Shown here in pieces: positions 1,791-25,811 of a DNA stretch of 61,340 bases (the stretch's first letter is position 1; each line of letters starts with the position of its first letter). Origin of the DNA: Candidatus Woesebacteria bacterium UBA5941 (GTDB taxonomy: Bacteria; Patescibacteriota; Microgenomatia; UBA8517); contig DJCV01000004.1 in NCBI GenBank assembly GCA_002430735.1, positions 25,747 to 87,086 of the forward strand, given 5' to 3'. Made by a program: the position numbers and the translations under genes. The notes under the pieces are model-generated. The model searched no databases and was not told where the DNA came from. It worked only from the letters and a program-made list of their open reading frames with translations.

Positions 1791-2618
1791 ATGAAAATAA
1801 TTCTAAAAATATTCGTTTCTTTTGCCATTTTAGGGGGCGTCACTCACCTTACAGCAAATAGTGCACTAGCCGCGTGTACCTCCAGAACAGTAGACCCCGC
1901 CTCCGGGCAAGTTGGAACGACATTTACCGTTCGTCTCGAAGGCTGTACGGCTGGTAATTATCAGGTGTCACTTTTTAAAGGAGGTCCATATCAAACATAT
2001 AGTGCTCAAAGTGTGGGTTCAAACGCGTACGTCGCAGTTATTAGTGGTCTTCCGGAAGGTACCTACTCAGCAACATATAACGAAGTTGGCCAAGGCGGTA
2101 CTTCTGTTGGAAATATCACGGTAACTCCTCAAGTAGGAGCGACAACAACGAGATTTGAATGCCAAACAGTGAACAACATGAGCTACTGCTTTAAATGCAC
2201 TTTTAACGGCACAACCAAAATTAGCTGTACTAGTCCAAGCTCTGGTGAAATGGGCAGCTGCCCAGCAGCGTGCAAATTAGTCGTTCCTGGAGGCAGTGTT
2301 GGGGTTGGAATGTCCGCAAATATTCAAGGTAGTTGCCCAGCAGATCAAATTGAAACAGGGATTGGGTGCATCCCTATTGGAAGTCCCACTGGTTTCGCTG
2401 CGTTCTTTTTGCGATGGGGATTAGGAATCGCAGGTGGAGTCGCTATGCTTGTTTTTGCATACGCTTCTTTCATGCTTATGACCTCGGCAGGTGATCCGAA
2501 AAGGCTCCAGACCGGAAAAGAGCTCCTCTTTTCTGTTATCTCAGGAATCATCATGCTTGTGTTCTCGATGTTTATTTTGAATTTACTGGGTGTAAATATC
2601 CTCGGACTTTTTGCATGA
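1791..2618 (+). CDS. Chimeric T4SS pilin-like protein P1: signal peptide, Ig-like module, Cys-rich module, C-terminal two-TM pilin domain
   Basis: Signal peptide MKIILKIFVSFAILGGVTHLTANSALA. The C-terminus reads GIGCIPIG...WGLGIAGGVAMLVFAYASFMLMTSAGDPKRLQTGKELLFSVISGIIMLVF, which is the TM-loop-TM pattern shared by all nine paralogs. Confidence 0.75.
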   Translation: MKIILKIFVSFAILGGVTHLTANSALAACTSRTVDPASGQVGTTFTVRLEGCTAGNYQVSLFKGGPYQTYSAQSVGSNAYVAVISGLPEGTYSATYNEVGQGGTSVGNITVTPQVGATTTRFECQTVNNMSYCFKCTFNGTTKISCTSPSSGEMGSCPAACKLVVPGGSVGVGMSANIQGSCPADQIETGIGCIPIGSPTGFAAFFLRWGLGIAGGVAMLVFAYASFMLMTSAGDPKRLQTGKELLFSVISGIIMLVFSMFILNLLGVNILGLFA

Positions 2619-3796
2619 GAACTACAAAAAAACAAATACTCCTTTCGATCGTATTCAGTGCTGCAGTATTTTTAGGTATTGGGAGTAAGACATTAGCCCA
2701 AGAGCCAAGTTGTGGATCGACGTTAACATTGTCCCCCGCAACAGGTGACGCAACAACTGTCTATACAATGACTGCGTCAAACTGTGTACAAAATATTGGA
2801 TATCGAATCTCAATCTTCAAAGATGGGAGTGGTGTTGAAAGCTTGCTTGCATACTCCTCCGGAGCTGAAGGATCATGGACTATCCAGTTCGGGCCACTTG
2901 CGGCAGGAACGTATGAGATACGATTCTTCAAAGAAGGTACTCCTTTTGAATACACGTCAAAAACAGTGACGGTTTCAAGCACTCCGCTTCCTGTGTCAGC
3001 TATTTGTGGCCAGGTTATTCCGATAGGTGCGAGCGTTACTTGTCCGACTGAGCCCTATTGTCCTCAAATGTCGACCGGAAGCGGACCAACAGGAGGTGCT
3101 GGCCGCTGGTGTGCATGTGGTGAGCTGAATTTTGGGTGCTGTCCAAACGGAAATAGTTTAAATAGAACTGCGTGTCAAAATGGGCTTACCTGCGAAAGCG
3201 GTGTATGCAGACTCGATGACAACAATACAGAAAAAGCAAAATATTATTGCGGTGAAATGGTTCGGCCAGAAGACGCAGGTAACTTTGAATGCATGGGGTG
3301 CCAAGCTGCGGTGCTTGATTCCCCTGGTCCTGACGGAGAGCAATATTGGTGTACCTGTGGAGGCGACTACCAGCTGTGCTGTCCAACCGCAGGAGCACAA
3401 CAGTGCGAAGGTGACTGCAATACGAAACCGGGAATTACCGATTGTAGTGGGAGCGGCCAAGCATGTGTTGGCGGAGTATGTATCATCCCCACACAGCAAA
3501 AAGTATCACTCTGTAGTGATCAAAAGTCAGTTTATACCGCCATTGGTTGTATCCCAATAGACACACTGTCTAATTTCATTTCGTTTGCACTTTCATGGGG
3601 CCTTGCTATTTCAGGCGCAGTTGCAATGCTCTCGCTTGCCGGCGCTGCATTTATGATTATGACTTCAGCAGGTGATGTTGCAAAACTTGAATCAGGGAAA
3701 CAAATGATTGTTGCAGCCGTGAGTGGAATCTTTTTCCTCGTGTTTGCTCTGTTCATATTACGTCTTATTGGAGTCAATATCTTAGGCTTATTTTAA
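2615..3796 (+). CDS. Chimeric T4SS pilin-like protein P2: signal peptide, Ig-like module, duplicated Cys-rich module, C-terminal pilin domain
   Basis: ATGA overlap with P1. The N-module is alignable with P1 (C..S..P..G...T...C...Y..S.FK.G....GTY....TVT/S). Internal repeat WCACG...CCP / WCTCG...CCP. C-terminus AIGCIPID...WGLAISGAVAMLSLAGAAFMIMTSAGDVAKLESGKQMIVAAVSGIFFLVF. Confidence 0.75.
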   Translation: MRTTKKQILLSIVFSAAVFLGIGSKTLAQEPSCGSTLTLSPATGDATTVYTMTASNCVQNIGYRISIFKDGSGVESLLAYSSGAEGSWTIQFGPLAAGTYEIRFFKEGTPFEYTSKTVTVSSTPLPVSAICGQVIPIGASVTCPTEPYCPQMSTGSGPTGGAGRWCACGELNFGCCPNGNSLNRTACQNGLTCESGVCRLDDNNTEKAKYYCGEMVRPEDAGNFECMGCQAAVLDSPGPDGEQYWCTCGGDYQLCCPTAGAQQCEGDCNTKPGITDCSGSGQACVGGVCIIPTQQKVSLCSDQKSVYTAIGCIPIDTLSNFISFALSWGLAISGAVAMLSLAGAAFMIMTSAGDVAKLESGKQMIVAAVSGIFFLVFALFILRLIGVNILGLF

Positions 3797-3808
3797 TGTC
3801 ATCATGCT

Positions 3809-3821: not shown

Positions 3822-4199
3822 ATGTTATCTACCATTTTAGCTCAAGGTTGTAGCGGGTTCACATTCTCTCAAGATTGTTTGCAGCAAATCGAAAACCAAG
3901 GAATTAAACCGAATAACCCAGGGTTTATTTCAACAAATGATATTGGGGATTTTTTCAATGGAAGCTATCGAATTACAAATCTCTTCTTTTTCTTTGCGGG
4001 AGGGGTCATCGCTTTTTATATTATCTCGGCTGGAATTGGATTTATGACATCACAAGGAAACCCACAAGCAGTTGCAGCGAGCAAGCAAAAACTTATTAAC
4101 GCATTTGCTGGGTTCTTCCTCCTCTTTTCTGCATACTGGATCGTGCAGTTAGCAGGAGCGATATTAGGCCTCGAAGGAATCACCCAAACATTCCAATAA
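3822..4199 (+). CDS. T4SS pilin-like protein P3 (TrbC/VirB2-like two-TM hairpin)
   Basis: N-terminus MLSTILAQ. Two hydrophobic helices flank the loop GFMTSQGNPQAVAASKQKLINAFAGFFL. Confidence 0.75.
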   Translation: MLSTILAQGCSGFTFSQDCLQQIENQGIKPNNPGFISTNDIGDFFNGSYRITNLFFFFAGGVIAFYIISAGIGFMTSQGNPQAVAASKQKLINAFAGFFLLFSAYWIVQLAGAILGLEGITQTFQ

Positions 4200-4200
4200 T

Positions 4201-4527
4201 ATGTCAGTTATTTACGCACAAGTTAATATCGGAGAGACCTTTGGCAGTCCATGGGGTGCCGAAGGTGGACTCCTCTTTGGAGATCTTTTTTCTTTAATAC
4301 TCTCAGGGGGGATTGTTGTAGGAAGTGTAATTACCGTTATTCTCTTTGTGATGGGAGGGCTCCACATGGTGCACGGAGCTGGAAGTGGTGACCCGAAGGC
4401 ATCTGCTCAAGGGAAAGAGGCTATTACGTGGGCACTGCTTGGGTTTGCAATAACATTCTCAGCATATTGGATCATTCGACTCATGCAGGACTTTTTCGGA
4501 ATACCGCTTCTTATTCAAGTAAACTAA
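4201..4527 (+). CDS. T4SS pilin-like protein P4
   Basis: N-terminus MSVIYAQ. Loop motif LHMVHGAGSGDPKASAQGKEAITWALLGFAI between two TM helices. One-nt gap from P3. Confidence 0.7.
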   Translation: MSVIYAQVNIGETFGSPWGAEGGLLFGDLFSLILSGGIVVGSVITVILFVMGGLHMVHGAGSGDPKASAQGKEAITWALLGFAITFSAYWIIRLMQDFFGIPLLIQVN

Positions 4528-4577
4528 GGCCGGAGTATTCCCTCTTTAAAAAATTCTGTATACTATTTTAGAAACAT

Positions 4578-4928
4578 ATGTATCAATTATTTGGAATTAT
4601 TAGACCCCCTGAGGGCGTTCGTGACTTTGGAACAAGCCCTGCTGAGGGAATTGGTCGTCTGATTCAACTGTTTTTCAACATATTAATCATCGCTGGAGGT
4701 ATTTATGCGGTGTTTAATTTTATTCTTGCAGGATATGCATTTTTATCAGCTGGAGATAATCCAAAAGGGATGGAAACTGCATGGGCTAAGATTTATCAAA
4801 CAATTATTGGACTAGTATTTCTCGTTGGATCATTCCTACTCTCTGCTGTAGTCGGTCTGTTAATTTTCGGCAGAGCAGACGCACTATTGAATCCAACATT
4901 AACAGTTCCTGGCGCTATTCCGTACTAA
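4578..4928 (+). CDS. T4SS pilin-like protein P5
   Basis: TM1 IAGGIYAVFNFILAGYAFLSAGDNPKGMETAWAKIYQTIIGLVFLVG TM2. TGTATACT -10-like element at 4557-4564. Confidence 0.7.
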   Translation: MYQLFGIIRPPEGVRDFGTSPAEGIGRLIQLFFNILIIAGGIYAVFNFILAGYAFLSAGDNPKGMETAWAKIYQTIIGLVFLVGSFLLSAVVGLLIFGRADALLNPTLTVPGAIPY

Positions 4929-4933
4929 ACTAA

Positions 4934-5305
4934 ATGAAAAGACTTGCAGCTGATTTTACATTTGCCCCGCCTGATGGTTTCAGTGGGCCTGGTGGAGGTG
5001 CATTTGAAAACCCTGGAGCAGATCCAGCCGGAAACTTTGAAACCTTAATTACGACTATTATTGGGGTCATGACCGTTGTTGCAGGTATTTGGTTCATCTT
5101 CGTTCTCTTTATTGGAGCAATTGGGTGGATAACGGCTGGTGGCGATAAAGGTGCAGTAGAAACTGCCCGGAAGCGTATTTCAAGCGGAATCACAGGACTT
5201 ACCGTTGTTGTAATCGCGATATTCCTCGCCAGTATGGTAGGACAATTCCTTGGGTTTGATATTCTAAATCTTGCTGAAATGATTAATGGATTAGCACCAC
5301 AATAA
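4934..5305 (+). CDS. T4SS pilin-like protein P6
   Basis: IGAIGWITAGGDKGAVETARKRISSGITGLTVVVIAIF. Close paralog of P7 and P8. Confidence 0.75.
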   Translation: MKRLAADFTFAPPDGFSGPGGGAFENPGADPAGNFETLITTIIGVMTVVAGIWFIFVLFIGAIGWITAGGDKGAVETARKRISSGITGLTVVVIAIFLASMVGQFLGFDILNLAEMINGLAPQ

Positions 5306-5311
5306 ACAGGC

Positions 5312-5653
5312 ATGTATTTCTCAACGGTATTAGCACAAGTCGGGAATCCGGTTATAACCAACGGAGAGAATGTTGATGGTATTGCTTTCTTTACAACATT
5401 TGTCGCCCGACTAATTGGAATTATTTTTGTTGTAGGGGCAATCGCCTTCTTCTTCATGTTTTTACTCGGTGCTGTTCGTTGGATAACTTCAGGTGGTGAC
5501 AAAGGACAAGTCGAATCCGCTCGAGCACAAATCACCCAGGCGCTCACAGGACTCATTGTTATGTTTAGCATTTGGGCAATTGCCACTCTCCTCGAAGAAG
5601 TACTTGGATTTAACATCTTAAGCCTCGATGTGGCCGGACTCCTCCCTCAATAA
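5312..5653 (+). CDS. T4SS pilin-like protein P7
   Basis: N-terminus MYFSTVLAQ. LLGAVRWITSGGDKGQVESARAQITQALTGLIVMFSIW. Confidence 0.75.
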   Translation: MYFSTVLAQVGNPVITNGENVDGIAFFTTFVARLIGIIFVVGAIAFFFMFLLGAVRWITSGGDKGQVESARAQITQALTGLIVMFSIWAIATLLEEVLGFNILSLDVAGLLPQ

Positions 5654-5728: not shown

Positions 5729-5756
5729 TTGACAACAGTGAAAATCGTGTTAAACT
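5729..5756 (+). promoter_or_regulatory. Sigma-70-like internal promoter of the pilin array (TTGACA-N16-TAAACT with TGn extension), followed by SD AAGGAGG at 5781-5787
   Basis: ttTTGACAacagtgaaaatcgTGtTAAACTatac in the only sizeable gap of the array (5654-5799). The 12-mer GTGTTAAACTAT recurs at 15973-15984. Confidence 0.5.
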
Positions 5757-5799
5757 ATACGATTTTTCATTAAATCTTTCAAGGAGGTGACACAATGAT

Positions 5800-6156
5800 A
5801 TGAATTTATTTTCTACGGTATTAGCTCAAACAACTTTTGACGTTAGCCAGGGTGCAACAGTTGGTCAAACTGGATCAGCTTTAAACGAGTTTACAATCCC
5901 AGGACTCATTAGTTTTGCTGTAACCGCGATTATTATCGTAGCAGGACTTATCTTCTTTTTCATGCTTATTATTGGAGGTCTTCGTTGGATCCTTTCAGGT
6001 GGAGACAAAGCACAAACAGAATCAGCACGAAGTCAGATTACTGCTGCGTTAATTGGACTCGTAATTATTTTCTCAGCTTGGGCGATTGTTACCCTCGTCG
6101 AGAACGTATTCGGTTTCAATGTTCTAAACTTAACATTACCAGCCTTAAACAGCTAA
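5800..6156 (+). CDS. T4SS pilin-like protein P8
   Basis: N-terminus [47 protein letters not shown]. Good SD upstream. Confidence 0.8.
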
Positions 6157-6220: not shown

Positions 6221-7762
6221 GTGAATATGAAACAGAAGGCAGTGATTATTGGCGCAGGTCCTGCCGGACTTACTGCAGCATACGAATTATCAAAAACCAA
6301 CACCTTCACTCCCCTTATTCTTGAACGATCAAAGCGAGTCGGAGGATTATCCACAACAATTACATACAAAGGAAATAAGATCGACATTGGTGGACATCGT
6401 TTTTTTACAAAGTCGGATACTATCATGCAGTGGTGGCTATCATTTCTCCCAATTGAAAAGGGATACGGCAAATCTGAACTCACATACCATGGAAGGAAAC
6501 AAGCTGTTACTTCCAAGCACCTTTTTCAGAAACGAAATAAAAACGATGTAATGATGATCCGAAACAGACTTTCTCGGATATATTACAAAGGAAAGTTCTT
6601 TGAATACCCACTCGAACTTAATCTCAAAACAATACAGTCGATCGGAGTGCTTGATTCTTTCTGGTTTCTGTTTAGTTATATACAAGCGATTGTTCGCCCT
6701 ATTAAACCTGAAATTACCCTCGAAGATTTCTTTATTAACCGCTTTGGTAAAAAACTGTATGAAACGTTCTTTAAAACGTATACGGAGAAGGTTTGGGGGA
6801 AAAAATGCAGTGAAATACCTGCATTGTGGGGGAAGCAAAGAGTAAAGGGACTTTCCATGAAAAAAGCTGTTGTAAACGGAGTTTTAAAGATGATAAGGCC
6901 TCAGCACTTTAGCCCGAATAAAAAAACTGAAACCAGCCTCATTGAGAAGTTTCTTTATCCCAAGTATGGGCCAGGTCAACTGTGGAATCTCGTTTCAAAA
7001 GTAGCGAAAAAAAATGGTGCTGAGCTCAAATTTGAATCTGAAATTGAGTCGATTCACATACAGAACTCTCGAGTCTCATCCATCACATATAGAGATCGAA
7101 ACCAGAAGAAATATAAAACAGCAGCTTCTGTTGTGATATCCAGTATTTCAATACAAGAACTAGTCCCTTTGATTACCCCTCCTCCACCAAAAAAAATCTT
7201 ACAAATAGCAGCAGGACTCGAGTACCGAGATTTCTTGGTTGTTGGAATTCTTCTCAAAAAAACAACGGTAAAATTACACGACAACTGGTTGTATATTCAC
7301 GACCCAATAGTCAAGGTTGGACGAATTCAAATATTTAATAATTGGAGCCCTAGTATGGTGAAAGATAAAAAGACGGTGTGGATCGGTATGGAATATTTCA
7401 GTAATACCGATGACGATTTCTGGAAGCAAAAAGATATAGAAATTATTACCATTGCAAAAAAGGAAATTGCGGCCCTCGGGCTAGCTTCCGAAGACATGGT
7501 TATTGATGCGACTATATACAGAGCTCCAAAAGCATATCCTGCATACACTGGTAGTTACTCTCAATTCGAAGCACTAAAGAGATATCTCAACCGAATTGAG
7601 AACTTATTTTTGATCGGAAGAAACGGTATGCACAAGTACAATAATCAAGACCATTCAATGCTTACCGCAATTGAAGCGGTGAATATAATTGTTGAAAAGA
7701 GGCGTGATAAGAACTCAATTTGGGATATAAATACCGAAGAAGAATACCATGAGACTAAATAG
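6221..7762 (+). CDS. NAD(P)/FAD-dependent oxidoreductase (amine-oxidase / UDP-galactopyranose-mutase-like fold)
   Basis: N-terminal dinucleotide fold [18 protein letters not shown]...[10 protein letters not shown]. The ATG at 6227 is an alternative start. First gene of the glycosylation cassette. Confidence 0.65.
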
Positions 7763-8891
7763 TTACATTAACACAGTACTCTCCATTGTCAGCACTGTTG
7801 CCGTACTCATTGCAGGAGTACTAATTCTTAATTTATTTTATCAGTCGTATCAGACGATGCTGGTAAAAGGCAGCGTTGATTTGCGAAATCGAATAACAGG
7901 AACTCGTGTTGCGTTAACAGACCAAGATCCGTATACATACACATGGAAAGTGACCGATCCGATTGAGTGGGCAGATCCATACGCAGACCCTGTCGGGACA
8001 ACGAGTAGACTCACAGTCAGCCCAGGGTTATTACTGTTTCACCTTCCTTTATCTTATTTGAGATTTGATCAGACTATTGTGTTGTGGTTCTTTATCGAAT
8101 GGTTGGCGTTATTAATCACTGTGCTCATTTTATTAAAGTATATGCCCTCAAAGAACAAGAAGCTTCTATTTTTTGTTCTTACAACAGCCTTTACACTCAG
8201 CATCTACTGGAGGATACACATTCTCGCAGGTCAGGTATATATATTTTATGCACTCGCGAGCGCTGTGATTATGGTTTTCTTACAACGAAATAACGCGCAA
8301 AAGTTAGCAGGAATAGCGTTTGCAATCTTATGCATTGCAAGACCGCCTTATATGTTTTTGTTGGTCCCTTTTCTTGTTTTGTGGCCTCAATACAAAACAT
8401 TCATCCTGAGCTTTTTCATGTCGCTGATCAGCACTTTCATCCTAACTGGACTAGTGTTTGGATTCCCCATTTGGAGACAGTATGCTCAATCGATGATATT
8501 GCATGACGGAATTTCATCACAGAATTTGATCGAGAGAAATTATTCAACCGATATATATCCACAGTTAATTGAAAATGTTTCCTTTTTACGAGGAGACAGA
8601 CTCCCGTTACTTGAGCAAGAAGACTCGTTTAGGGGATCACTAAACAAACATTTCGGTCTCCATGCAAATGTTACAACGCTGCTATTCTTAATGGGAGCAT
8701 TCACAATACTCGCAGCGGTTTTTATATATGCACAAAAAAATATTCTTTCAATACAACATGTCTTTCTACTAGGAATAACGCTTGTATTAGTAATTGAATA
8801 TCTACTCCCCGCTAAGCATTATATGTATGCAAATATCCAATGGATTATTCCGCTCGCAATAGTAATACAACAATGGAAATCTCGATCATAG
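7749..8891 (+). CDS. Polytopic integral membrane protein, possibly a GT-C-type glycosyltransferase or flippase-like protein
   Basis: 380 aa with about 9-10 hydrophobic segments. Overlaps the upstream oxidoreductase and downstream GT2 genes (operonic). There is no diagnostic motif, so the function is inferred from context only. Confidence 0.35.
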
Positions 8892-9709
8892 TTCCATTTC
8901 TGAATGAGGAGAAATATATAAAGCGATGCGTGAAGTCGCTTCAAAGACAAACACTAAAGCGTCGAACGAAGAGTGAACTGCTCTTCATAGACAACGGGTC
9001 AACAGATAGCTCCACGGAGATTGTTCGATCGCTCGCACCAGTCAAGTTGCTTACAGAAACAAAACCAAATGTATATGCCGCTAGAAACAAAGCACTGTCT
9101 GTTGCAAAAGGAGAGATTATTGCATTTACCGATGCCGACTGCAGTGTTTCTGTAGAGTGGATCTCTACGATCCAAGAATGCTTTTCAGATCAAGCTGTTG
9201 GTATAGTAATTGGAAAAAGAGCGTTTCCAAAAACGCATGACCCGTTTTTAAAATATCTTGAAGATTACGACAATGCAAAAATGAAGTATGTTGTAACGAA
9301 TGGTGATGTGAACACATTGTTTGGGTTCACAAACAATATGGCGGTACGAAAGAGCGCGATTACCAAGGTCCGAGGATTTAAGGAACTGGAAGTAAACGGC
9401 GATACTGATTTAGTACAAAATATTGTAAAAAAAACTAAATACACGGTTATTTATAATGAGAAAATGTTGATTACCCATCTGGAAATAACAAACTGCTATC
9501 AGTGGTACAAGAAAATGTATCTTTACGGCTTTCACAACAAAACACTCTCACGGCAGACGTCATATAAAGCACTCACGATGGCAGACAATATTTCAATTTT
9601 TAAGAGAGCGTCACACAAATACACATTCAGAGAGAAAAGCATTGCACTTCTTGCTCTTGCGATCGGAATACTGTCATACAAAGCCGGCGAAATAAAGGCT
9701 TTCACATGA
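8873..9709 (+). CDS. Glycosyltransferase family 2
   Basis: [27 protein letters not shown]...FIDNGSTDSS...AFTDADC (GT-A fold, DxD). The tracked ORF starts at 8840, but the ATG at 8873 gives the canonical GT2 N-terminus. Confidence 0.75.
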   Translation: MEISIIVPFLNEEKYIKRCVKSLQRQTLKRRTKSELLFIDNGSTDSSTEIVRSLAPVKLLTETKPNVYAARNKALSVAKGEIIAFTDADCSVSVEWISTIQECFSDQAVGIVIGKRAFPKTHDPFLKYLEDYDNAKMKYVVTNGDVNTLFGFTNNMAVRKSAITKVRGFKELEVNGDTDLVQNIVKKTKYTVIYNEKMLITHLEITNCYQWYKKMYLYGFHNKTLSRQTSYKALTMADNISIFKRASHKYTFREKSIALLALAIGILSYKAGEIKAFT

Positions 9710-15952: not shown

Positions 15953-15982
15953 TTCACACAAGAGATGATAAGGTGTTAAACT
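15953..15982 (+). promoter_or_regulatory. Putative promoter of the prgI-virB4 operon (TTCACA-N18-TAAACT with TGn extension)
   Basis: acTTCACAcaagagatgataaggTGtTAAACTat. Shares the 12-mer GTGTTAAACTAT with the pilin-array promoter at 5747-5758. Confidence 0.4.
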
Positions 15983-16005
15983 ATCAGATTTTTTAGTCAC
16001 CTTTT

Positions 16006-17114: not shown

Positions 17115-17813
17115 ATGCCGGTAATTGATAAACTATTTGCAAAAATCCCACTCCTCAATACGCCTGATCAGCCAATTATTCGGCCGACTCAAGATGTTGT
17201 TCCAATTGCTGACATCGTAGATGACATTGTTTTGTACAAAGACGGAGGTGCAGCTTTGGTTCTTGAAACGTCTTCGCTCAACTTCGGACTTCTTTCAGAA
17301 CGAGAGCAAGAAGCAGTTATCGCTGCGTTTGCTGCACTTATTAACAGTTTGTCTTTTGCAGTACAAATAACTGTCCGAACACAGCGAAAAAACATTGGGA
17401 GCTACCTTGCATATCTTGATGGAAAGATTGAAGAAATGAAAAATCCAAAACTGAAAACACTCATGATTAACTACAAAACGTTTATTTCAGATACGATTCG
17501 AAAACGAAATGTGTTAGGAAAGAGATTTTTTATGGTCATTCCATTTTCTCCACTAGAACTTGGATTTTCAAAAGGAATGATTCCAGGGGTTAAACAACAG
17601 GTGATCCTCCCTTATACTGAGGACTACATTTTAAAGAAAGTTAAAACGACTCTTTATCCAAAACGAGACCATTTAATTAGACAGTGCGCACGACTCGGAC
17701 TTCGAGCAACACAAATGAGAAGAAATGAACTTATCCATCTGTATTACGATATTTATAATCCAGACGTTGAAGCGGTGAGAGAACAACCTGAAGCAAAAGA
17801 ACCAATAGAATGA
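17115..17813 (+). CDS. Hypothetical protein resembling a stand-alone VirB4 N-terminal domain
   Basis: VVPIADIVDDIVLYKDGGAALVLETSSLNFGLLSEREQEAVIAAFAALINSLSFAVQITVRT... parallels the N-domain of the following VirB4 (VIAPQDIEVNFDHIRVGNVYYRTLFVAGYPRFV...LDISFYLYPV). Overlaps virB4 by 4 nt. Confidence 0.45.
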   Translation: MPVIDKLFAKIPLLNTPDQPIIRPTQDVVPIADIVDDIVLYKDGGAALVLETSSLNFGLLSEREQEAVIAAFAALINSLSFAVQITVRTQRKNIGSYLAYLDGKIEEMKNPKLKTLMINYKTFISDTIRKRNVLGKRFFMVIPFSPLELGFSKGMIPGVKQQVILPYTEDYILKKVKTTLYPKRDHLIRQCARLGLRATQMRRNELIHLYYDIYNPDVEAVREQPEAKEPIE

Positions 17814-19735
17814 ACCCACAACAACCAACACAACCGGTAACAACACCCACACAAGTTCCTGTGCAAACACCACCTACACCAAAAGGTCCGACTGGCATGC
17901 CCAAAACGTCATTTGTTGAAGGCCAAAAACCGTTTATTACCGACCCTGTTGAAGCGTTAAAGCAAGACCCAACACTCACAATTAGTGATGTCATTGCACC
18001 ACAAGACATTGAGGTGAATTTTGATCATATTCGAGTTGGGAACGTATATTATCGAACACTTTTCGTTGCAGGATATCCTCGATTTGTCGTCCCGGGATGG
18101 CTTGAACCAGTGGTAAATTTTGATCACAGTTTAGACATTAGTTTCTACCTCTACCCTGTTGAAGGAAAAACAGTACTTGATGATTTGCGCCGCAAAATTA
18201 CTGAAATGGAAGCTGAAATGTCGACTGATATACAACGTGGAAGAATTGTAAATCCAGGCACAGAGGCAAAACTTGAGGACGCAAAAGTATTACAAGAGCA
18301 ACTCGTAAAAGGAATTGAACGGTTTTACCAATATAGCTTCTACATCACGATCCCTGCAGCGACCGAAGACGAACTGAATAATATTACAAAGCGTATTGAG
18401 TCGACTCTCGCCTCTGTTCTTATCATTGCAAAACACGCGACGCTTGATATGCAAAAAGGCTTCCTCAGCGCAGCTCCATTGGGACGTGACGTTTTAACCA
18501 TTACTCGCAACATGGATACAACCTCCCTTGCGACAACATTTCCGTTCACAACAGCAGAACTAAGCTCAGACACGGGAATTTTGTATGGAATTAACTCTCA
18601 AAATGACTCATTTATTATCTTTGACCGGTTTGGACTCGAAAACAGCAACATGACTGTTTTTGCGACCTCTGGTGCTGGAAAATCCTTCTTCGTGAAGCTT
18701 GAGAGCATTCGATCTCTCATGATGGGAGCAGAAATTATCGTCATTGACCCTGAAAACGAATATCGAACTATTACTGAAGCTGTTGGAGGAGAATACATTA
18801 GTTTTAGCTTTAGCTCTTCAAGCAAAATTAATCCTTTCGATTTGTCGCAAATTTATGAAAAAGGTGAAAACCAGCTTGGATTAAAAATATTGACTCTTCA
18901 CTCCCTCTTTAAAGTCATCATGGGCCAATTAAATGCGAGCCAAGAAGCGCTGCTTGATCGGGCACTCATCAACGCATATAGAGCAAAAGGTATTACCATG
19001 GATCCTGAAACACAGGATAAAGAACCACCACTTATCGAGGACTTATATAAAGCCTTGATTGGAATGGAAACAGCAGAAGCCATTGATCTTGCTTCTCGCA
19101 TCGAGAAGTATGTAAAGGGAAGCTATGTCGGTATTTTTGATCAACAAACAAACATTAATATCGAAAATCCATTTACAGTATTCTCAGTACGAGACATTCA
19201 AGACACTCTCCGTCCAATTGCCATGTTTATCATCCTTGACTATATTTGGACGAAGGTCAGAAAAGATATTAAAAAGAGACTGCTTGTTGTCGACGAGGCA
19301 TGGCACATGATGAGATATCCAGATACTGCTGCATTTTTGTGGTCAATCGTAAAGCGCGCACGTAAATACTACCTTGGGCTCACAACTATTACTCAAGACG
19401 TCGAAGACTTCTTGTCACAAGACATTGGTAAAGCGGTCGTTACCAATTCGGCAATGCGACTACTTCTGAAACAGTCCCCTGCTGCAATTGATCGAATTAC
19501 AGAAACGTTTTACCTCTCCCAAGGAGAAAAACAGTTATTACTCGCCGCAGGTGTCGGAGAAGGAATTTTGTTTGCAGGTCCACACCACGCGCCAATCAAA
19601 ATTGTCGCTTCTCCTGAGGAATACGCCTTTGTGACCACAAAGCCACAAGACTTGATGGACACTGGTAAATCAACAACGCAATTACAATCGGCAAGCCCAG
19701 CCGACGCTGCCGCAATAGCCGGACAAACCGGATAG
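17810..19735 (+). CDS. virB4: VirB4/TrsE-family T4SS ATPase
   Basis: Walker A FATSGAGKSFFVK (18662-18685) and Walker B RLLVVDEAWHMM (~19280). Also TTITQDVEDF, and a VirB4-type N-domain after a Pro/Thr-rich leader. Confidence 0.85.
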   Translation: MNPQQPTQPVTTPTQVPVQTPPTPKGPTGMPKTSFVEGQKPFITDPVEALKQDPTLTISDVIAPQDIEVNFDHIRVGNVYYRTLFVAGYPRFVVPGWLEPVVNFDHSLDISFYLYPVEGKTVLDDLRRKITEMEAEMSTDIQRGRIVNPGTEAKLEDAKVLQEQLVKGIERFYQYSFYITIPAATEDELNNITKRIESTLASVLIIAKHATLDMQKGFLSAAPLGRDVLTITRNMDTTSLATTFPFTTAELSSDTGILYGINSQNDSFIIFDRFGLENSNMTVFATSGAGKSFFVKLESIRSLMMGAEIIVIDPENEYRTITEAVGGEYISFSFSSSSKINPFDLSQIYEKGENQLGLKILTLHSLFKVIMGQLNASQEALLDRALINAYRAKGITMDPETQDKEPPLIEDLYKALIGMETAEAIDLASRIEKYVKGSYVGIFDQQTNINIENPFTVFSVRDIQDTLRPIAMFIILDYIWTKVRKDIKKRLLVVDEAWHMMRYPDTAAFLWSIVKRARKYYLGLTTITQDVEDFLSQDIGKAVVTNSAMRLLLKQSPAAIDRITETFYLSQGEKQLLLAAGVGEGILFAGPHHAPIKIVASPEEYAFVTTKPQDLMDTGKSTTQLQSASPADAAAIAGQTG

Positions 19736-19748: not shown

Positions 19749-21956
19749 ATGGCAGAGTCACGAGAAAAATATTTAGCAAGACAATTATCAGAAGCTGTTA
19801 AAAAAATAGGGACTGATCGGAGGCTTCATCCTGAAAAAGCAGAGCGAGCACCGGAATATATTGAAAAGGCGTATTCAGATATATATCTTCATTCACAAAA
19901 GTTTCTTTCTGAATCAGATGTTATGGAATTACGAAACCCTGACAGCCCTTACCGCTTCTCAATTGCCATGCGAGCGCTCGAAAAAGCCGCTGCAAAAAAA
20001 CCTGCTGGAACTACAAAGAAGCCCATTTCTCAAGGACAAACTGCACGAAATATCCACAAACTCTTAACAGAGGCAGATGAACGCGGACTCAGTAAAGATG
20101 ACCAGAAGAAAATTATTGAATCGACATTCCTCATTAGCGGAGCATCTGATGCATTAAATCCCGATGAAGTAAATGCCGATGAATTAAGAAACGAAATTCT
20201 AGAGCGAAAGGCGCAAGCAGCACTTATTCAAATTAAAGCAGAGAATAACAATAATGACACCGTCGCCGAACTATTTACAAAACAGCGACAGAAAATACTA
20301 GAAGTTGGGGTTTCTGATCAAGAGCTTGATGATGAATTATTCGAGGTGCAGAAGCAAAAAACAATTGCGCATGTCACTGAGATTGCTAACAACAAAGAAG
20401 TTGCAGGGAGATACTCCAACAGCTTAGGTGAGCTTTACGCTTTGGAGATGGGCATTTCTTCTTTAGCTGCAGGTGGAACCGCGCTTACTGCTGAACAAAA
20501 GGCTCGCATATTAGCAGGGATTGGTGAGAATTCTGCCACAGTAGGTGCATTAATGAAAAATGGTCAGGGCGTACAATTTTTAAGAAACCCTTCTGGATAC
20601 CTCGCCTCACGTGCAGGAAATCAAGTTGCACAAAGAGTGACTGCTCGAATAACTAGTGTTGCCGCTGGCCGCCTCGCTGGTACCGCATTAGGAACAGCAC
20701 TTGGATCAGTCGCCCCTGTCATAGGGAATGTTGTTGGATCATTTGTTGGTAATGTAATGGGAAAGTACATAGGTGGCGCAATTCGTGGCGCAGTGTCTAT
20801 TGGACGAAAAAGTGCAATGGCAGCAGCAGGCGCTTTCGTTGTAATTGGAGGTGCATTTGCACATGGGATGGCGGTAGCGGCAAGTGCAGGAAGCTTGTCT
20901 GCAATTATCCTTGTTCCAATTGTTGCGGTAATTATGCTTATTATTAATTCAGGAGGGTATATTGTTCCCCCATCTGCAAACCTTGATGGTTCAAGTTCTG
21001 ACACTGATATCTTTACTGAAGGAGGAACAACTGAAAACCAATACTTAACTGTTATAAAAAGGGCAAACCCTGCGGGTCCATTCCAAAACAGTGCGCTCCC
21101 AACATCTATTACTTACACGATTGAAGTTAGGGCGAAAAGACCAGGTATTACCAATCTCAACTTTACCTACAGCTGTTCTGCTATTGCCGCAGCTGGAAAC
21201 ATTAACTGTCCGCCAAACCCAACAATCCCCGCAGCACCAGAAACTCTTGAGCAGGGAACTCCTTTTACGTTTGAATATACACAAAACTACTCGACGGCAT
21301 TTAGAGACTCTGTTGTTATGGATAGTTTCACCGTTTCCGGCAGTGCAGGAGGTACTCCAACAGGAGATGCCGTTGGATTTGCTTCAGTTATCTTTGGAAA
21401 ACCACCAACTCGTTGTTTTGTCTTTGGAAGCAGCTTAAACCCAATTACTGAAATTCCTCCACTTATTGCCGCGATTGGTCAAATGAATAGAGAGTCTCGC
21501 TTTATGGATACACTCTGCGCACGCGTTCCAACAATTACGATTGAGCGTGGAACTGAAAACGTATCATACGGAGGTCGCACTGTATTCCCTCGCATTTATC
21601 TATTCACACCAGCTTTCAGTAACGGATTACGCAGCGTGTTTTACACCCTTACGCATGAAACAGGCCACATTTTTGCCAACGCGCAAACTTCCCAGACAGT
21701 GTTTAAAGAATTTATCGAGCTTCCCTTCCCAACATCAAGTAGTGGGTACATTTGTACTTATCCATCAAGCGCCAGAGCATATAACGATGACAATAGAGGA
21801 AAGGAAAACTTTGCTGAAAGTATCGCATTGTACTTTTTGCGCAACAGTTTAAGTAGTAGTGGTGTTAACTTTACCTGTATGGACGCTCTTGGTGGCTCTT
21901 TTGATGTAGCCTATCCGAACTACTATAATTTTATGAGAGATAAGATATTTAATTAA
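19749..21956 (+). CDS. Membrane protein with cytoplasmic coiled N-region, glycine-zipper TM block and extracellular HExxH (zincin-like) domain
   Basis: Gly/Ala-rich hydrophobic block AGRLAGTALGTALGSVAPVIGNVVGSFVGNVMGKYIGGAIRG...ILVPIVAVIMLIINSGG. HETGH at 21654-21668 in the context FYTLTHETGHIF. Confidence 0.55.
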   Translation: MAESREKYLARQLSEAVKKIGTDRRLHPEKAERAPEYIEKAYSDIYLHSQKFLSESDVMELRNPDSPYRFSIAMRALEKAAAKKPAGTTKKPISQGQTARNIHKLLTEADERGLSKDDQKKIIESTFLISGASDALNPDEVNADELRNEILERKAQAALIQIKAENNNNDTVAELFTKQRQKILEVGVSDQELDDELFEVQKQKTIAHVTEIANNKEVAGRYSNSLGELYALEMGISSLAAGGTALTAEQKARILAGIGENSATVGALMKNGQGVQFLRNPSGYLASRAGNQVAQRVTARITSVAAGRLAGTALGTALGSVAPVIGNVVGSFVGNVMGKYIGGAIRGAVSIGRKSAMAAAGAFVVIGGAFAHGMAVAASAGSLSAIILVPIVAVIMLIINSGGYIVPPSANLDGSSSDTDIFTEGGTTENQYLTVIKRANPAGPFQNSALPTSITYTIEVRAKRPGITNLNFTYSCSAIAAAGNINCPPNPTIPAAPETLEQGTPFTFEYTQNYSTAFRDSVVMDSFTVSGSAGGTPTGDAVGFASVIFGKPPTRCFVFGSSLNPITEIPPLIAAIGQMNRESRFMDTLCARVPTITIERGTENVSYGGRTVFPRIYLFTPAFSNGLRSVFYTLTHETGHIFANAQTSQTVFKEFIELPFPTSSSGYICTYPSSARAYNDDNRGKENFAESIALYFLRNSLSSSGVNFTCMDALGGSFDVAYPNYYNFMRDKIFN

Positions 21957-21959: not shown

Positions 21960-22532
21960 ATGCTTGAAACAATTAAAAAATATAAAAAGCCAATTCTGTT
22001 TATTATTCTCACGATGATTATTGTTGCCCTTGGATTACTGACGAGACAAACACGAACAGTGAACGATGCGGCAAACGCAACTCCTGCCCCTACCCCCGTT
22101 GTTGAAGCTCAAGGCGAATGGGGAAGACTTGGTGACATTGTCACAAAACTAGGAGAGCCGCTAAACAGAAAGAGTGATCGGGTTAAAAATGGCGTGTATT
22201 ACTACGAATCAGGGAATGCCAATAAGAAAACACAAGTCGTCTTTAGAGATAATGTTGCAGTTATGATGAAAGAGATCATTTCTTCTAAAGACACAAGAAC
22301 TGCAGTAAGCATTACAAAAACACTGGGTGACGAGGAGCTCATTCTTTATGGAGAACTCTCAGAACTCGGATATCATCTCTATGCCTATCCGAGTAAAGGT
22401 GTTGCGTATGTGGGTGACAAACAAAGCGGAAGCTTGATGGAGATTTGGTACTTCTCTCCAATGTCTAAAGAGGAGTTTGATCAATCTTTGGCGAGTGACT
22501 ATAGCACAGCGCCCGAGCTTGATGGCTATTAA
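21960..22532 (+). CDS. Hypothetical N-terminally anchored membrane protein of the T4SS-like operon
   Basis: Single TM PILFIILTMIIVALGLL, then a ~150-aa soluble domain. Tightly packed between two operon genes. Confidence 0.5.
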   Translation: MLETIKKYKKPILFIILTMIIVALGLLTRQTRTVNDAANATPAPTPVVEAQGEWGRLGDIVTKLGEPLNRKSDRVKNGVYYYESGNANKKTQVVFRDNVAVMMKEIISSKDTRTAVSITKTLGDEELILYGELSELGYHLYAYPSKGVAYVGDKQSGSLMEIWYFSPMSKEEFDQSLASDYSTAPELDGY

Positions 22533-22535: not shown

Positions 22536-25500
22536 ATGAAAAAAGCAATACTGTTCAGTTTCTTTATCTTTTTCTCTTTCTTTGCAGGACAAATCACGAG
22601 TTCTGCTCTCACGATTAAAGCCCAAACACCACCAGAACAATCTGGTGACTTTGCAGCTTGTGTTGGTGCAGCGCTCGCCAAGTACTTTCAAGATGTATTA
22701 GTTGGTACACGCGGCTTGGACAAAATAAAGATTTTATCTCCTGCTTTTAACTTAACCAACCCGATTGAATTCGATATGTTTTATGTCATGAAATCCGGGC
22801 CAAATGGTGAATTTTTCAAACCTCAAAATTACGGGAACTTCTTTGGATTTGCAGGCAACACTTATTCAATTGGTGGTGTCAAAGCATACGATTGGTTCGC
22901 TTCACCTGAAATAACAGGACGCAACTGGAAAGGTGAAACAGTTGGTGCATATGCCGGAACTCAAATGATATTCACCGAGTTTGGGGATTTTGATACATTC
23001 GGCGATGGCGCAGGCCTTGGAGTTCCTGGTTCAGCTCGAGGAACCATTATCGGAAATTTAGCAACTGAATACGGACGGAGTTCAAATGATGGGTCAATTG
23101 CTGCAATTAACTTCTTTGCCGCGATGCAAAGCTACAGCAATCCAGAATTCCGCGGCCACAATTTAACGAATAGTGAAATCGGGCAGGTCGTCGGGGCAGG
23201 GTCAGCAGCCAAAGCAGGTCAAAACCCTGGGTTGTTCGTTGCAGGAGAATCACTTCCACAGGCGGTGCAATCAAATGGATTGCCGAATGGATGGGTGCTA
23301 GATATTGTCGGCGGACCGGGAGACCTCGACTCTGCAACAAGATTTGTAAATACTGCTCACAGCCTCGGATACAACCCAATTCTTCGCACTTGTGTTGGTA
23401 ATAAATGCGGATTTGCAGAACCTTCTATCTACGTTTCATTCCTGCGTTCATTGAATGCGGTAATCACAGGTCCAGTATGGGTTATTGCTGGGCCAAACGA
23501 GCCTGCAACCGAACACTGGGCAGCTCCCGCCTGTGCACCCGAAGGAAAGAAGTTTGAGCTTGATGAGGTTCCTTGTAATGCAACACAGGAGCCTGAGTTT
23601 CACTCGCTTCGTCCATACCCAACGAATCCCTGCAATAAACAAGTTGAGCAAGCTTACTATATGTGTGGACAAGATTTAGTAGTAAAGGACACCTATGAAT
23701 TTCAAGACGGTGGTGGCCAGTGTGAAGACTTACCCGGTGGCGGTCGCCGATGTAGATACACAATCGAAGGGCAAACTTCGCAAGTATCCCTGGGTCTTTT
23801 GAACGCAAATCTTCCAATCCTCGGAAATACTGAAGGTGTACCAAACAGCACAAATAGTGAACTCCCAGAAGAATCTCGTAGCACCATTGATTTCAAGCAA
23901 CGAGTAAACGAATACGTAAGCTGGTACTTAAATGGAATCCCGTACCGCGCAGAAGAAAAAACAGACTCTATTCAAAACCAAGTGATTGGTGAAATGAACA
24001 TCTATGACAAAATTATTAATCTTGCTGGTCCACTAAAGAAACTGCTCCCTCGGCCGATTCAAACTGCGGAGCGCTCTAATGAAAAAGATCGGATTGGAAT
24101 AGAAGGAGAGATCGGAAGGCACAATCAGATTGCAGAATGTGGTACACCAAATGCACCTGAACAATGCTACACAGACTCAAACCAATACCAGAGAATTACA
24201 AACCTCGTACAAGCAGGACCTAACACGCGAGGATTCCCCTATTTACCATTCTCCTCAACAGAAGACCGTTTAGGGCTCGCAACCTCAGGTTTGCGGTTTG
24301 GAGCGCCATCCTGTGCTGATGGAAACCCAAATGCTGACGACATTGAAAGCGGCATTACCTGTATTGATTATGAATCTGAAAACACCAGTAAAGAACTGTA
24401 TTTTGCACACGTTGATGAGAGTAACGAATTGGGCCGCATGCTACAAAACACATATAAACCATTTTCAGTGAACGATGCGGGGACGGCTCCGAAGGAAGGC
24501 CTCGCTGAATTAATTGATACTCCCTATTGCGAACTTATTGAAGCGAGAACCAACCCGGGTGACAAGCTCTATGGAGAACTCGTTCGACCAGGCGACACAG
24601 AAACGAAACCAATTTCAGGCACACTCACCTATTCTGCAAACTTCACGTGTGATTTCCCTTCACCTGACCCAGAGCAAGTGGCGCTTTGTATGACTGGCTG
24701 TGAAGATTTACCAGCAGATGCACAGGCCCAGTGTGAACTTGATTGTAATAACACCAGTAACACCTGTCTTCGAGAAGTGTTCGTTCCGTTTAGTGTTACC
24801 GTAACAAGCCCAGGGTTTGAAAATATTTGGGAACGGTTTGTTGCAGGAAGCATGTCTATCGTAAAACGAATTTTCCCACTCGTTGGTCCGAATGCGCCGA
24901 TTGTGAAATTAGAAGATATTCCTGGCAAATCAGGTGCGACATATCGATCCCAGGTCATTTCTGGTAACCCAGAACTCTTAACCAGTGAGGCTCTTGCCGG
25001 GGATCCTAATAAAAATCGTCCTGGCGTAACTGCTGAAATATATTTCCCTCACTTGGGAAGCGTTTATGATTACTTCTTAAAGGGCATTCAAACAGCACTC
25101 CGACCATATGGAATCAAGGAAGAAGACACAGGACAAGTAATTCCGCCTGCAGTTTGTACTATTGAGAATGCAAATTTCAGGTCCCAAGCACTGCTCAACA
25201 TTATTTCTCAAGCAGCAAAATGGGCTCGTATTCCCGTCGAACTCTTAACCATGGTCGTTGAAAAAGAAGGATGTGGGTATTTCGGTTCACCAAACGGCAT
25301 TTGTGGATTGAGCGATGGTGAAGTTGAACAGTACAGTGCTCCAGGTGCTCAATACCCACGAAACTGTGTGCAAGGTATTAGTCGGGCAAGCGGTCCAATG
25401 CAGATCATTAACGGCATTTTCAACAACTGGAGTACTGCAGTAAATCAAGGTACCGGAGACACGCGAACACCAAATAACTGTAATATCAAAGATTCTATTT

Positions 25501-25811
25501 TTGCAGCCGCGTGGATTTTGTCCGCAGGATATCCACCGAATCTCCTTACCCCACAGCCTGGATATAACGTTGTTAATAGCCCTGAACCTGGATCATGGAC
25601 CATGACAGACATGCAAAGAGCAATTTCAAAGTGGGTAAACGGGTATTTGGATAACACGAGCCAAATTTGTGAGACACGACCAGCACTTCTCCCCGCAGCA
25701 GCTTGCTTTACAGAATCATACTGTGCGCAACTCTTAAGACATAACAACACAATTAAGACTGACTGCAACGCGAAACCAAGTGGAAGTGGTGTCGATATTC
25801 CGTCCTGTTAA
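22536..25811 (+). CDS. Large secreted Cys-rich protein with C-terminal lytic-transglycosylase (SLT/VirB1-like) domain
   Basis: Signal peptide MKKAILFSFFIFFSFFAGQITSSALTIKAQ. The C-terminal region reads AAKWARIPVELLTMVVEKEGCGYF...SRASGPMQIINGIFNNW...IKDSIFAAAWIL. This fits the SLT layout: catalytic Glu (25260-25268), then G.MQI (25392-25406), then a hydrophobic helix. Confidence 0.6.
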   Translation: MKKAILFSFFIFFSFFAGQITSSALTIKAQTPPEQSGDFAACVGAALAKYFQDVLVGTRGLDKIKILSPAFNLTNPIEFDMFYVMKSGPNGEFFKPQNYGNFFGFAGNTYSIGGVKAYDWFASPEITGRNWKGETVGAYAGTQMIFTEFGDFDTFGDGAGLGVPGSARGTIIGNLATEYGRSSNDGSIAAINFFAAMQSYSNPEFRGHNLTNSEIGQVVGAGSAAKAGQNPGLFVAGESLPQAVQSNGLPNGWVLDIVGGPGDLDSATRFVNTAHSLGYNPILRTCVGNKCGFAEPSIYVSFLRSLNAVITGPVWVIAGPNEPATEHWAAPACAPEGKKFELDEVPCNATQEPEFHSLRPYPTNPCNKQVEQAYYMCGQDLVVKDTYEFQDGGGQCEDLPGGGRRCRYTIEGQTSQVSLGLLNANLPILGNTEGVPNSTNSELPEESRSTIDFKQRVNEYVSWYLNGIPYRAEEKTDSIQNQVIGEMNIYDKIINLAGPLKKLLPRPIQTAERSNEKDRIGIEGEIGRHNQIAECGTPNAPEQCYTDSNQYQRITNLVQAGPNTRGFPYLPFSSTEDRLGLATSGLRFGAPSCADGNPNADDIESGITCIDYESENTSKELYFAHVDESNELGRMLQNTYKPFSVNDAGTAPKEGLAELIDTPYCELIEARTNPGDKLYGELVRPGDTETKPISGTLTYSANFTCDFPSPDPEQVALCMTGCEDLPADAQAQCELDCNNTSNTCLREVFVPFSVTVTSPGFENIWERFVAGSMSIVKRIFPLVGPNAPIVKLEDIPGKSGATYRSQVISGNPELLTSEALAGDPNKNRPGVTAEIYFPHLGSVYDYFLKGIQTALRPYGIKEEDTGQVIPPAVCTIENANFRSQALLNIISQAAKWARIPVELLTMVVEKEGCGYFGSPNGICGLSDGEVEQYSAPGAQYPRNCVQGISRASGPMQIINGIFNNWSTAVNQGTGDTRTPNNCNIKDSIFAAAWILSAGYPPNLLTPQPGYNVVNSPEPGSWTMTDMQRAISKWVNGYLDNTSQICETRPALLPAAACFTESYCAQLLRHNNTIKTDCNAKPSGSGVDIPSC

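Follow-up and report, generated by a model that had tools for sequence, protein, structure and literature searches.

In a 61,340-nucleotide (nt) stretch of DNA from Candidatus Woesebacteria UBA5941 (class Microgenomatia, Candidate Phyla Radiation (CPR)/Patescibacteria), hereafter the window, a block of ~24 kb at positions 1791-25811 very probably encodes the patescibacterial type IV secretion system (T4SS), a machine derived from the conjugation apparatus of monoderm bacteria (mating-pair formation type MPF-FATA) whose conjugation functions have been lost. The block contains 22 genes, nine of which encode pilins. It is a typical member of a family already described between 2023 and 2025 and does not constitute a new system. 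A preliminary description of the same DNA had presented the locus as a distinct system deserving characterization as new; this claim has to be given up, since the pilin arrays, the missing relaxase, the proximity to the origin, and the analogy to ComB are already in print (PMC12102498, PMC11665869).

The core of the machine is encoded by the following genes:

11149-12813, plus strand: VirB6-like polytopic membrane protein, 554 amino acids (aa), assigned by predicted fold and position only
16006-17112, plus strand: PrgI/VirB3-like protein, 368 aa, containing a linker rich in Pro, Thr, and Gln and ending in a beta-sandwich (PrgI PF12666, 28.1 bits, cutoff 27; CarboxypepD_reg, 19.7 bits)
17115-17813, plus strand: TrsD/TraC-like protein, 232 aa, consisting of a VirB4 N-terminal domain on its own (NCBIfam)
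17810-19735, plus strand: VirB4 ATPase, 641 aa, of the monoderm (MPF-FATA, CD1110) type (Pfam, NCBIfam)

The 641-aa protein matched P-loop_TraG at 105.7 bits and the NCBIfam model "VirB4-like conjugal transfer ATPase, CD1110 family" at 385 bits (cutoff 325), and its translation shows Walker A (GAGKS) and Walker B (LLVVDE) motifs. The preliminary description was therefore right to call it a VirB4 with both motifs intact, and right to see a VirB3-like PrgI protein, which scored just above its family cutoff. The best plasmid matches of VirB4 come from Bacillales and Actinobacteria, are annotated as CD1110 family, and are 29-37% identical; CedB was weakly matched as well (48 bits, E 6e-13, NCBIfam). 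As a proxy for its place in a VirB4 tree, we used the 80 best genome matches, which are 66-87% identical, against at most 37% for any plasmid VirB4, and which represent 80 species-level genomes, all of them Woesebacteria, Microgenomates or Patescibacteria metagenome-assembled genomes. In one relative (L165:16618-20178), VirB4 is 1186 aa long and contains an intein with a LAGLIDADG homing endonuclease; compared to the VirB4 of the window, the two extein parts show 68% and 78% identity.

The alignment of VirB4 covers only positions 178-735 of the 752-position CD1110 model. Immediately upstream, with a stop codon that overlaps the virB4 start, lies the TrsD-like gene, whose product matched the N-terminal region of NCBIfam VirB4_plasma (E 3.8e-7) and TrsD (E 1.2e-5), both under the full-length cutoffs. 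As VirB4 is missing the N-terminal part of the CD1110 model and the TrsD-like protein matches that region of VirB4, we conclude that the ATPase is split over two polypeptides. Orthologues of the TrsD-like protein in the related loci L164-L167 carry the Pfam annotation TraC-like (PF26593), and a PDB profile search with the family gave no match.

The 554-aa protein had been described as VirB6/TrbL-like, a claim for which we found no sequence-level support. Pfam, NCBIfam, and PDB profiles gave no match, Pfam scans of 37 orthologues were likewise empty, and searches of 5.8 billion proteins and of 1.8 billion representatives returned only its own unannotated family (4072 representative clusters at 50% identity), with no bridge to TrbL or VirB6. 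What did emerge was a similarity of fold. An AlphaFold2 (AF2) model, computed from a 71-sequence alignment (predicted local distance difference test score (pLDDT) 73.5), was searched against 350,542 PDB chains; TrwI/VirB6 of R388 made up eight of the top nine matches, which were weak (best E 0.04, probability 0.99, TM-score 0.43). By its predicted fold and its position, we accept the protein as VirB6-like.

The genes around virB4 recur in the related genomes. Within 10 kb of virB4, the TrsD-like gene was found in all 80 loci, a full-length PrgI in 78 of the 80, and the 554-aa VirB6-like gene, in synteny, in 62 of the 80. Downstream of virB4, at a distance of 1.5-7.3 kb, a convergent dnaN is present in every locus with at least 9 kb of downstream sequence (57/57). 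The order in the distant Microgenomatia loci L165-L167 begins with a divergent SpoIID gene and continues with a long pilin, pilA-pilG, a large secreted protein, the VirB6-like gene, a minus-strand orphan, PrgI, a TraC/TrsD-like gene, VirB4, and a large hydrolase. The composition of the block is uniform and matches that of the genome. Because the same locus, in the same position and with the same neighbours, is found in dozens of species-level genomes, we conclude that it is a vertically inherited core chromosomal locus and not an integrated conjugative element (ICE), as the preliminary description had proposed from the window alone.

Genes for mobility were sought with Pfam in the open reading frames (ORFs) of the window of at least ~110 aa, seven of which matched nothing, and among the Pfam-annotated gene calls of the 10 kb upstream, ~71 kb in total. 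Among the scanned ORFs of the 61-kb window, there was no relaxase, VirD4/TcpA/TraG-type coupling protein, VirB11, VirB7/9/10, or integrase, the same set of absences that had first been noted by eye. The 10 kb upstream, for which annotations only (those of the 941,859-bp metagenomic contig that contains the window) were consulted and no scan was run, lists SpoIID, DUF5657, smpB, and others, without mobility genes. A search for direct repeats that could be att-like flanks of the block returned only short, imperfect matches at chance level, again as described.

The boundaries of the block are set by the following features:

3-1715, minus strand: SpoIID-domain protein, 571 aa (571-codon translation; contig annotation PF08486 SpoIID), at the left boundary of the locus
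25826-26920, minus strand: dnaN (Pfam)
27034-27342: DnaA-box cluster in the dnaN-dnaA spacer, with five to six DnaA boxes
27264-28643, minus strand: dnaA (Pfam)

The SpoIID gene is cut by the window edge, its stop codon lies outside, and it is missing from the ORF list; it is for this reason that region 1-1790 looks empty. An Rfam scan of that region at two thresholds gave no match. The gene is divergent from the pilin array, an arrangement shared by L165-L167, and is the conserved left boundary of the T4SS locus. On the right, exactly 14 nt (25812-25825) separate the block end from the dnaN stop codon, and in between the boundaries every gene is on the plus strand, with the sole exception of a 746-aa ORF at 12918-15158; the preliminary description had both the distance and the nearly unidirectional layout correct. 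From the clustering of DnaA boxes at 27034-27342, we place the origin ~1.2 kb from the block end. The genes from prgI to the one for a 1091-aa protein at the end of the block are spaced by -4 to +13 nt and therefore form one operon. Among the other scanned ORFs, in the remaining 35 kb, Pfam recognized housekeeping functions only, including rnpA, yidC, jag, leuS, tsaD, groEL, dprA, L25, a ddl-like gene, and wall enzymes (Pfam). The presence of dprA had been reported together with that of rmuC, which was not confirmed.

With replication starting in the dnaN-dnaA spacer, the fork that moves leftward meets transcription of the entire T4SS block head-on, and the same orientation was seen in 57 of 57 relatives. 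Head-on transcription sits oddly with the idea of a gene-dosage effect.

The family to which the locus belongs was brought to light by Wang et al. (2023, Cell; PMC10633639), who showed by transposon sequencing that the T4SS of the Saccharibacterium Southlakia epibionticum (SEML1_0006-0019) is essential for epibiotic growth; that system has a Gram-positive-like composition and an essential series of pilins, with no recognisable relaxase or coupling protein (PMC10633639). Quinonero-Coronel et al. (2025, Microb Genom; PMC12102498) then surveyed 3,035 CPR genomes, Microgenomatia included, and found VirB4 in 2,417. The CPR VirB4s form a monophyletic clade nested in MPF-FATA and are accompanied by homologues of TrsD, PrgI/VirB3, and VirB6, and the survey counted 441 VirB2 arrays of 2-11 genes (mean identity 25%), chiefly in Microgenomatia and Saccharimonadia (PMC12102498). 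Almost no relaxases were found, the systems adjoin dnaA, dnaN, and rnpA, and import of DNA or other macromolecules was proposed; VirB6 was scarce in Microgenomatia, where divergence was suspected (PMC12102498). A 2024 perspective drew the analogy to ComB and proposed effector delivery for Saccharibacteria (PMC11665869), a 2025 review lists the patescibacterial systems as newcomers to the T4SS superfamily (PMC12857230), and a 2026 preprint describes uptake of host RNA and, where parasite and host meet, tubular structures that are possibly T4SS pili.

The pilin array occupies the first part of the block:

1791-2618, plus strand: extended pilin, 275 aa, with a signal peptide, an immunoglobulin (Ig)-like, Cys-containing head, and a C-terminal VirB2-like two-helix domain (T4SS_pilin 23.4 bits, residues 211-266)
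2615-3796, plus strand: extended pilin, 393 aa, in which two Cys-rich modules precede a C-terminal pilin domain (similarity to the 275-aa protein)
3822-5653, plus strand: pilA-pilE, small VirB2-like pilins of 125, 108, 116, 123, and 113 aa (T4SS_pilin 22-33 bits)
5800-6156, plus strand: pilF, 118 aa (T4SS_pilin 40.3 bits, the highest score among the pilins)
10736-11086, plus strand: pilG, 116 aa, with which the array ends (T4SS_pilin 26.5 bits)

Eight of the nine pilins matched Pfam T4SS_pilin (PF18895) at 22-40 bits, and four exceed the 26.6-bit cutoff. The ninth, of 393 aa, had no Pfam match, but shares 58% identity over its last 85 aa with the pilin domain of the 275-aa protein, so that the count of nine VirB2/TrbC-like pilins given earlier holds. 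Apart from this pair, pairwise identities among the pilins are only 17-26%. The small pilins pilA-pilE share a layout of a first transmembrane helix, a TSGGD-type loop, and a second transmembrane helix. A short conserved stub, M-x-x-S-T-[VI]-L-A-Q, opens several of the small pilins. It recurs loosely in relatives, looks like the last residues of the 393-aa pilin's signal peptide (…KTLAQ), and may serve as a short leader that is cleaved off.

Despite their divergence from each other, the pilins keep their places. Their order is colinear with that of their orthologues in 10 of the 10 loci having four or more matches, and also in L164-L167, and orthologues of pilG were found in 28 loci, each immediately 5' of the large secreted protein or of VirB6. 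The best conserved member is pilF (median identity 56% in 25 loci), which has its own promoter-like site and is probably the major pilin. As the paralogues are colinear and orthologous position by position across the class, the array must be old, and its members are probably not redundant. Their conserved order across the class rules out recent tandem duplication serving antigenic variation as the main origin of the array, and their ancient, ordered nature argues for distinct structural roles over the antigenic variation or host-range versatility suggested previously (PMC12102498). This ordering of ancient paralogues may be a new detail. The extended pilins behave differently across the relatives L164-L167, where the array opens with one or two pilins whose N-terminal extensions (182-505 aa) are very different in sequence, conservation being confined to the C-terminal pilin domain; in the window, the extensions consist of an Ig-like segment and repeated Cys-rich modules.

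Regulatory-like elements were seen ahead of pilF and of the operon that starts with prgI:

5729-5767, plus strand: promoter-like TTGACA-16-TG-TAAACT with the shared motif GTGTTAAACTAT..GATTTTT, upstream of pilF (consensus match only)
15885-15912, plus strand: strong terminator-like hairpin, just upstream of the second promoter-like site
15953-15993, plus strand: promoter-like site that includes the shared motif and precedes the prgI-trsD-virB4 operon

The motif lies over an extended -10 promoter-like site in both copies, at 5747-5767 for pilF and 15973-15993 for prgI, and the closest relatives have comparable elements upstream of both genes.

Downstream of virB4, the operon continues with three genes:

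19749-21956, plus strand: membrane protein, 735 aa, with a helical N-terminus, a Gly-rich transmembrane region, a conserved beta-rich domain, and a C-terminal HExxH module (motif conservation)
21960-22532, plus strand: bitopic protein, 190 aa (no family match)
22536-25811, plus strand: secreted protein, 1091 aa (AF2 model, pLDDT 84.5)

Among 23 orthologues of the 735-aa protein, 12 keep the motif HE[ST]GH and 10 have Peptidase_M23 at the same position (E down to 9e-23), and in L167 (19362-21524) the slot after virB4 is filled by a GDSL lipase. As HExxH, M23, and GDSL thus alternate on a conserved membrane/beta scaffold, the lytic module is exchangeable. Such swappable modules after virB4 may be a new observation and may track the host envelope. 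A profile search with the HExxH protein found three proteins only, its candidate list being filled by low-complexity words. The 190-aa gene follows the HExxH/M23 gene in 24 loci, and its product had no match in Pfam, NCBIfam, or a PDB profile search; with the latter empty, a VirB8-like identity is unsupported.

The 1091-aa protein was modelled as three parts. Residues ~40-320 form a TIM barrel, for which GH5 glycosidases are the best named fold matches among otherwise generic TIM barrels, and it is these that dominate a Foldseek search of the whole model against PDB; residues ~345-857 form a conserved Cys-rich beta middle domain; and residues ~884-1072 are all-alpha with a hairpin and lysozyme-like. 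The preliminary description had seen the layout of a lytic transglycosylase in this C-terminus. In its favour, orthologues carry Pfam SLT_3 ("lysozyme like") at the C-terminus (27-36 bits), the C-terminal family has the motifs E...GP[MW]Q[IF]...CN..DS.FAAA, the best PDB match is to MltC at the catalytic-Glu motif (weak, E 0.38), SLT and SLT_2 were matched below threshold in 3-4 of 17 family members, and the model gave weak fold matches to LT_GEWL and SLT and weak lysozyme/lytic-transglycosylase matches from a viral library. Against it, the C-terminus does not align to the SLT_3 of the orthologues (hhalign probability 0.3) and is a different sequence family. Taken together, the motifs and the weak matches fit a lytic transglycosylase, none being significant alone. 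In most relatives, a large secreted hydrolase is located between the last pilin and virB6 (L165:7613-9967, L166:7225-9954, L167:5891-9958); in the subclade of the window, which also includes L001 and L004, the large hydrolase has shifted to last place in the virB4 operon and acquired the N-terminal TIM barrel.

Based on these components, the machine probably works as follows. A split VirB4, made of a TrsD-like N-domain and a CD1110-type motor, would be docked to the membrane by PrgI/VirB3 and seated on a VirB6-like platform. The motor would pull the two-helix VirB2-like pilins from the membrane and polymerize them into a tube or pilus, with the seven small pilins, in their fixed ancient positions, supplying a single major subunit, probably pilF, along with several minor subunits, and with the two extended pilins presenting variable Cys-rich heads on the outside, probably as adhesins. 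The HExxH protein and the TIM-barrel/lysozyme-like 1091-aa protein would open the cell's own wall and probably that of the host as well.

Since there is no relaxase and apparently no coupling protein encoded by the locus, the machine points to contact with a host bacterium and not to conjugation. T4SS activities that need no coupling protein comprise pilus assembly, ComB-type uptake, and Ptl- or Brucella-type effector export. We tentatively prefer a conduit that imports host nucleic acid or other macromolecules, to which we give not quite an even chance; uptake is favoured because activities free of a coupling protein are known and host-directed tubes have been reported. The roles named in the preliminary description (uptake, attachment, and effector delivery) are all published hypotheses (PMC12102498, PMC11665869, PMC10633639).

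Several points weigh against this account. The notion that the system is essential is extrapolated from Saccharibacteria, and no Woesebacteria have been cultured. We infer pilus assembly, breaching of the host envelope, and the direction of transport. A VirD4-like protein is likely to be encoded elsewhere in the ultrasmall genome (~942 kb), as homologues occur in most CPR genomes (PMC12102498). The fold match behind the VirB6-like assignment is weak (E 0.04), as are the fold and motif matches behind the lysozyme-like C-terminus of the 1091-aa protein (E >0.3), and nothing VirB8-like was identified, the bitopic protein of 190 aa being without a detectable relative.

The same machine could instead export protein effectors into the host bacterium, a reading that we regard as rather unlikely and for which the lytic proteins or the product of a variable gene on the minus strand would be possible cargo. 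This gene and its neighbour are:

12918-15158, minus strand: variable-slot protein, 746 aa, acidic and soluble (no known domain)
15249-15863, plus strand: J-like membrane protein, 204 aa, with a degenerate N-terminus and two C-terminal transmembrane helices (DnaJ Pfam, 27.6 bits)

The 746-aa protein has no Pfam and no NCBIfam match. Of the ORFs that lie between virB6 and prgI, the largest is a minus-strand one of 526-1067 aa in 62 of 62 loci (e.g., L023:5894-8143 and L002:3067-5718). These sequences fall into 15 groups by BLAST single-linkage (11 clusters of at least two and four singletons), of which one pair alone could be linked by hhalign (88% probability), and ten cluster representatives showed no Pfam domain. 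The proteins are soluble and acidic, with a median net charge of -10. A large, soluble, domain-less protein that holds a fixed position in all loci and belongs to many unrelated clusters would suit an effector. Moreover, a basic tail (net charge of the last 30 aa of at least +2) was found in 62% of the variable-slot proteins compared to 26% of 549 control ORFs (p = 1e-9, computed on related, non-independent sequences). Substrates of VirB/D4 bear C-terminal signals, which such tails resemble. The tail of the window's own protein, however, has a net charge of -1. Export has also been proposed for Saccharibacteria (PMC11665869); against it stand the lack of a coupling protein in the locus and the finding that a distant type IV coupling protein homologue of S. 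epibionticum is dispensable while the T4SS is essential (PMC12102498). That the variable-slot protein is a translocated substrate or a host-specificity factor of the patescibacterial T4SS we consider a long shot; if it were translocated, it would be the first candidate cargo of this system. A hypervariable gene at a conserved antisense position may in itself be new.

In the closest relative, L164 (14332-17533, minus strand), the variable-slot gene and the J-like gene are set apart by an inserted module of ThiF (E1-like) and E2-CBASS with unknown partner genes. The J-like protein had been listed as part of the gene complement; the DnaJ match is partial, spanning profile positions 38-63 only, there is no HPD motif, and apart from a J-like gene of 314 aa at the same place in L164, the gene is not conserved among the related loci.

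More doubtful still than export is a pilus for adhesion or attachment only, in which VirB4 would assemble fibres of the VirB2 type to keep the epibiont attached to its host, with no translocation. Pilus biogenesis is an established coupling-protein-free function of the Agrobacterium VirB system, and the investment in pilins is heavy (9 of the 22 genes), with variable extracellular heads on the extended ones. In addition, glycosylation cassettes of the glycosyltransferase GT-C type have been inserted into the array twice, one of them in the window:

6221-10707, plus strand: inserted cassette of a flavin adenine dinucleotide (FAD)/amine-oxidase-like protein (513 aa), a GT87 GT-C membrane transferase (380 aa), and two GT2 proteins (289 and 333 aa) (Pfam)

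This cassette sits between pilF and pilG and has a GC content of 0.38-0.39 compared to ~0.42. It is missing from all 80 related loci, and in L004 pilF adjoins pilG; the embedded glycosylation cassette of the preliminary description is thus present, as a lineage-specific insertion outside the conserved system and not as one of its parts. In L164 (4838-9638), the same gap holds another GT-C cassette, with PMT_2, an ICMT-like methyltransferase, and two unknown genes. Two independent GT-C insertions at one site hint at pilin glycosylation, and the pilF-pilG gap may be a hot spot for such cassettes, possibly a new one. When the FAD enzyme was used to scan metagenomes, the matches were limited to genes of 43-49% identity on high-GC, non-CPR contigs without nearby pilins, which is uninformative as to the origin of the cassette. 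For adhesion and motility, CPR bacteria already employ type IV pili (PMC12857230), and a conserved VirB6-like channel protein together with several envelope-lytic enzymes exceeds the needs of an adhesin; both speak against a simple holdfast.

An ICE or its decayed remnant, with relaxase, coupling protein, and integrase outside the window or recently lost, is scarcely credible and was rejected, for although VirB4, PrgI, and TrsD are homologous to components of Firmicutes conjugative elements and relaxases are present in a few CPR genomes (PMC12102498), the locus is syntenic in all relatives examined, between SpoIID and dnaN/dnaA across dozens of species-level genomes, its VirB4 is strongly conserved, its composition is genome-like, and no integrase, relaxase, or att-like repeats were found in the ~71 kb of scanned ORFs and annotations.

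Few machines are known without which the Patescibacteria, a vast and for the most part uncultured branch of the bacteria, could not live as epibionts, and their T4SS is one of them. The window offers a clean and complete example from Microgenomatia, with a fold-level VirB6 candidate in a class where the survey found VirB6 to be scarce. The leads that it provides are the ordered pilin paralogues, the interchangeable lytic modules, and the hypervariable gene for a possible cargo. In a related reading, variable pilin heads, swappable lytic modules, and recurrent GT-C cassettes would make up a host-range toolkit.

Among known systems, Helicobacter pylori ComB and Ced of the Crenarchaeota are at best analogous in function and do not belong to the family. 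Both work without a relaxase, and ComB needs no coupling protein. ComB, however, is a diderm system with VirB7-10, families that were not matched by the T4SS ORFs of the window (Pfam, NCBIfam), and Ced uses CedA/CedB, whereas no CedA-like gene was seen in the window. Competence in S. epibionticum depends on ComEC and is distinct from the essential T4SS function (PMC12857230). With Agrobacterium VirB and R388 Trw (MPF-T), the locus shares two-helix VirB2-type pilins, the pairing of VirB3 and VirB4, and, by a weak fold match to TrwI, a VirB6-like protein; it differs in having no VirB5, 7, 8, 9, 10, or 11, in a monoderm envelope, and in multiple pilin paralogues where these systems have one.

The MPF-FATA systems of Firmicutes and Actinobacteria (pCF10 Prg/Pcf, pGO1 Trs, CTn2/CD1110) share more with the locus: a CD1110 VirB4, PrgI, and TrsD, no VirB7/9/10 outer-membrane core, and multidomain cell-wall hydrolases encoded in the operon. 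An example of such a hydrolase is PrgK of pCF10, which combines LytM, SLT, and CHAP domains. Unlike these systems, the locus was found without a relaxase, a coupling protein, or a PrgB-type adhesin, and its VirB4 is just 29-37% identical to theirs; it has VirB2-like pilins, which are absent from the Gram-positive systems, and a fixed chromosomal position with vertical inheritance.

The closest correspondence is with the T4SS of other Patescibacteria (PMC10633639, PMC12102498). Compared to these, the window differs only in details of its subclade: its VirB6-like protein is invisible to hidden Markov models, a GT87/GT2/FAD cassette lies inside its pilin array, its large hydrolase is at the end of the operon and not before virB6, and an HExxH module takes the place of M23 after virB4. 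Held in common are a chromosomal locus, relaxase-less and placed beside dnaA, dnaN, and rnpA; a monoderm-type VirB4 with an adjacent TrsD, PrgI/VirB3, a VirB6-like protein, and a divergent VirB2-like array (2-11 genes, ~25% identity); and genes of the peptidase/lysozyme type after virB4.

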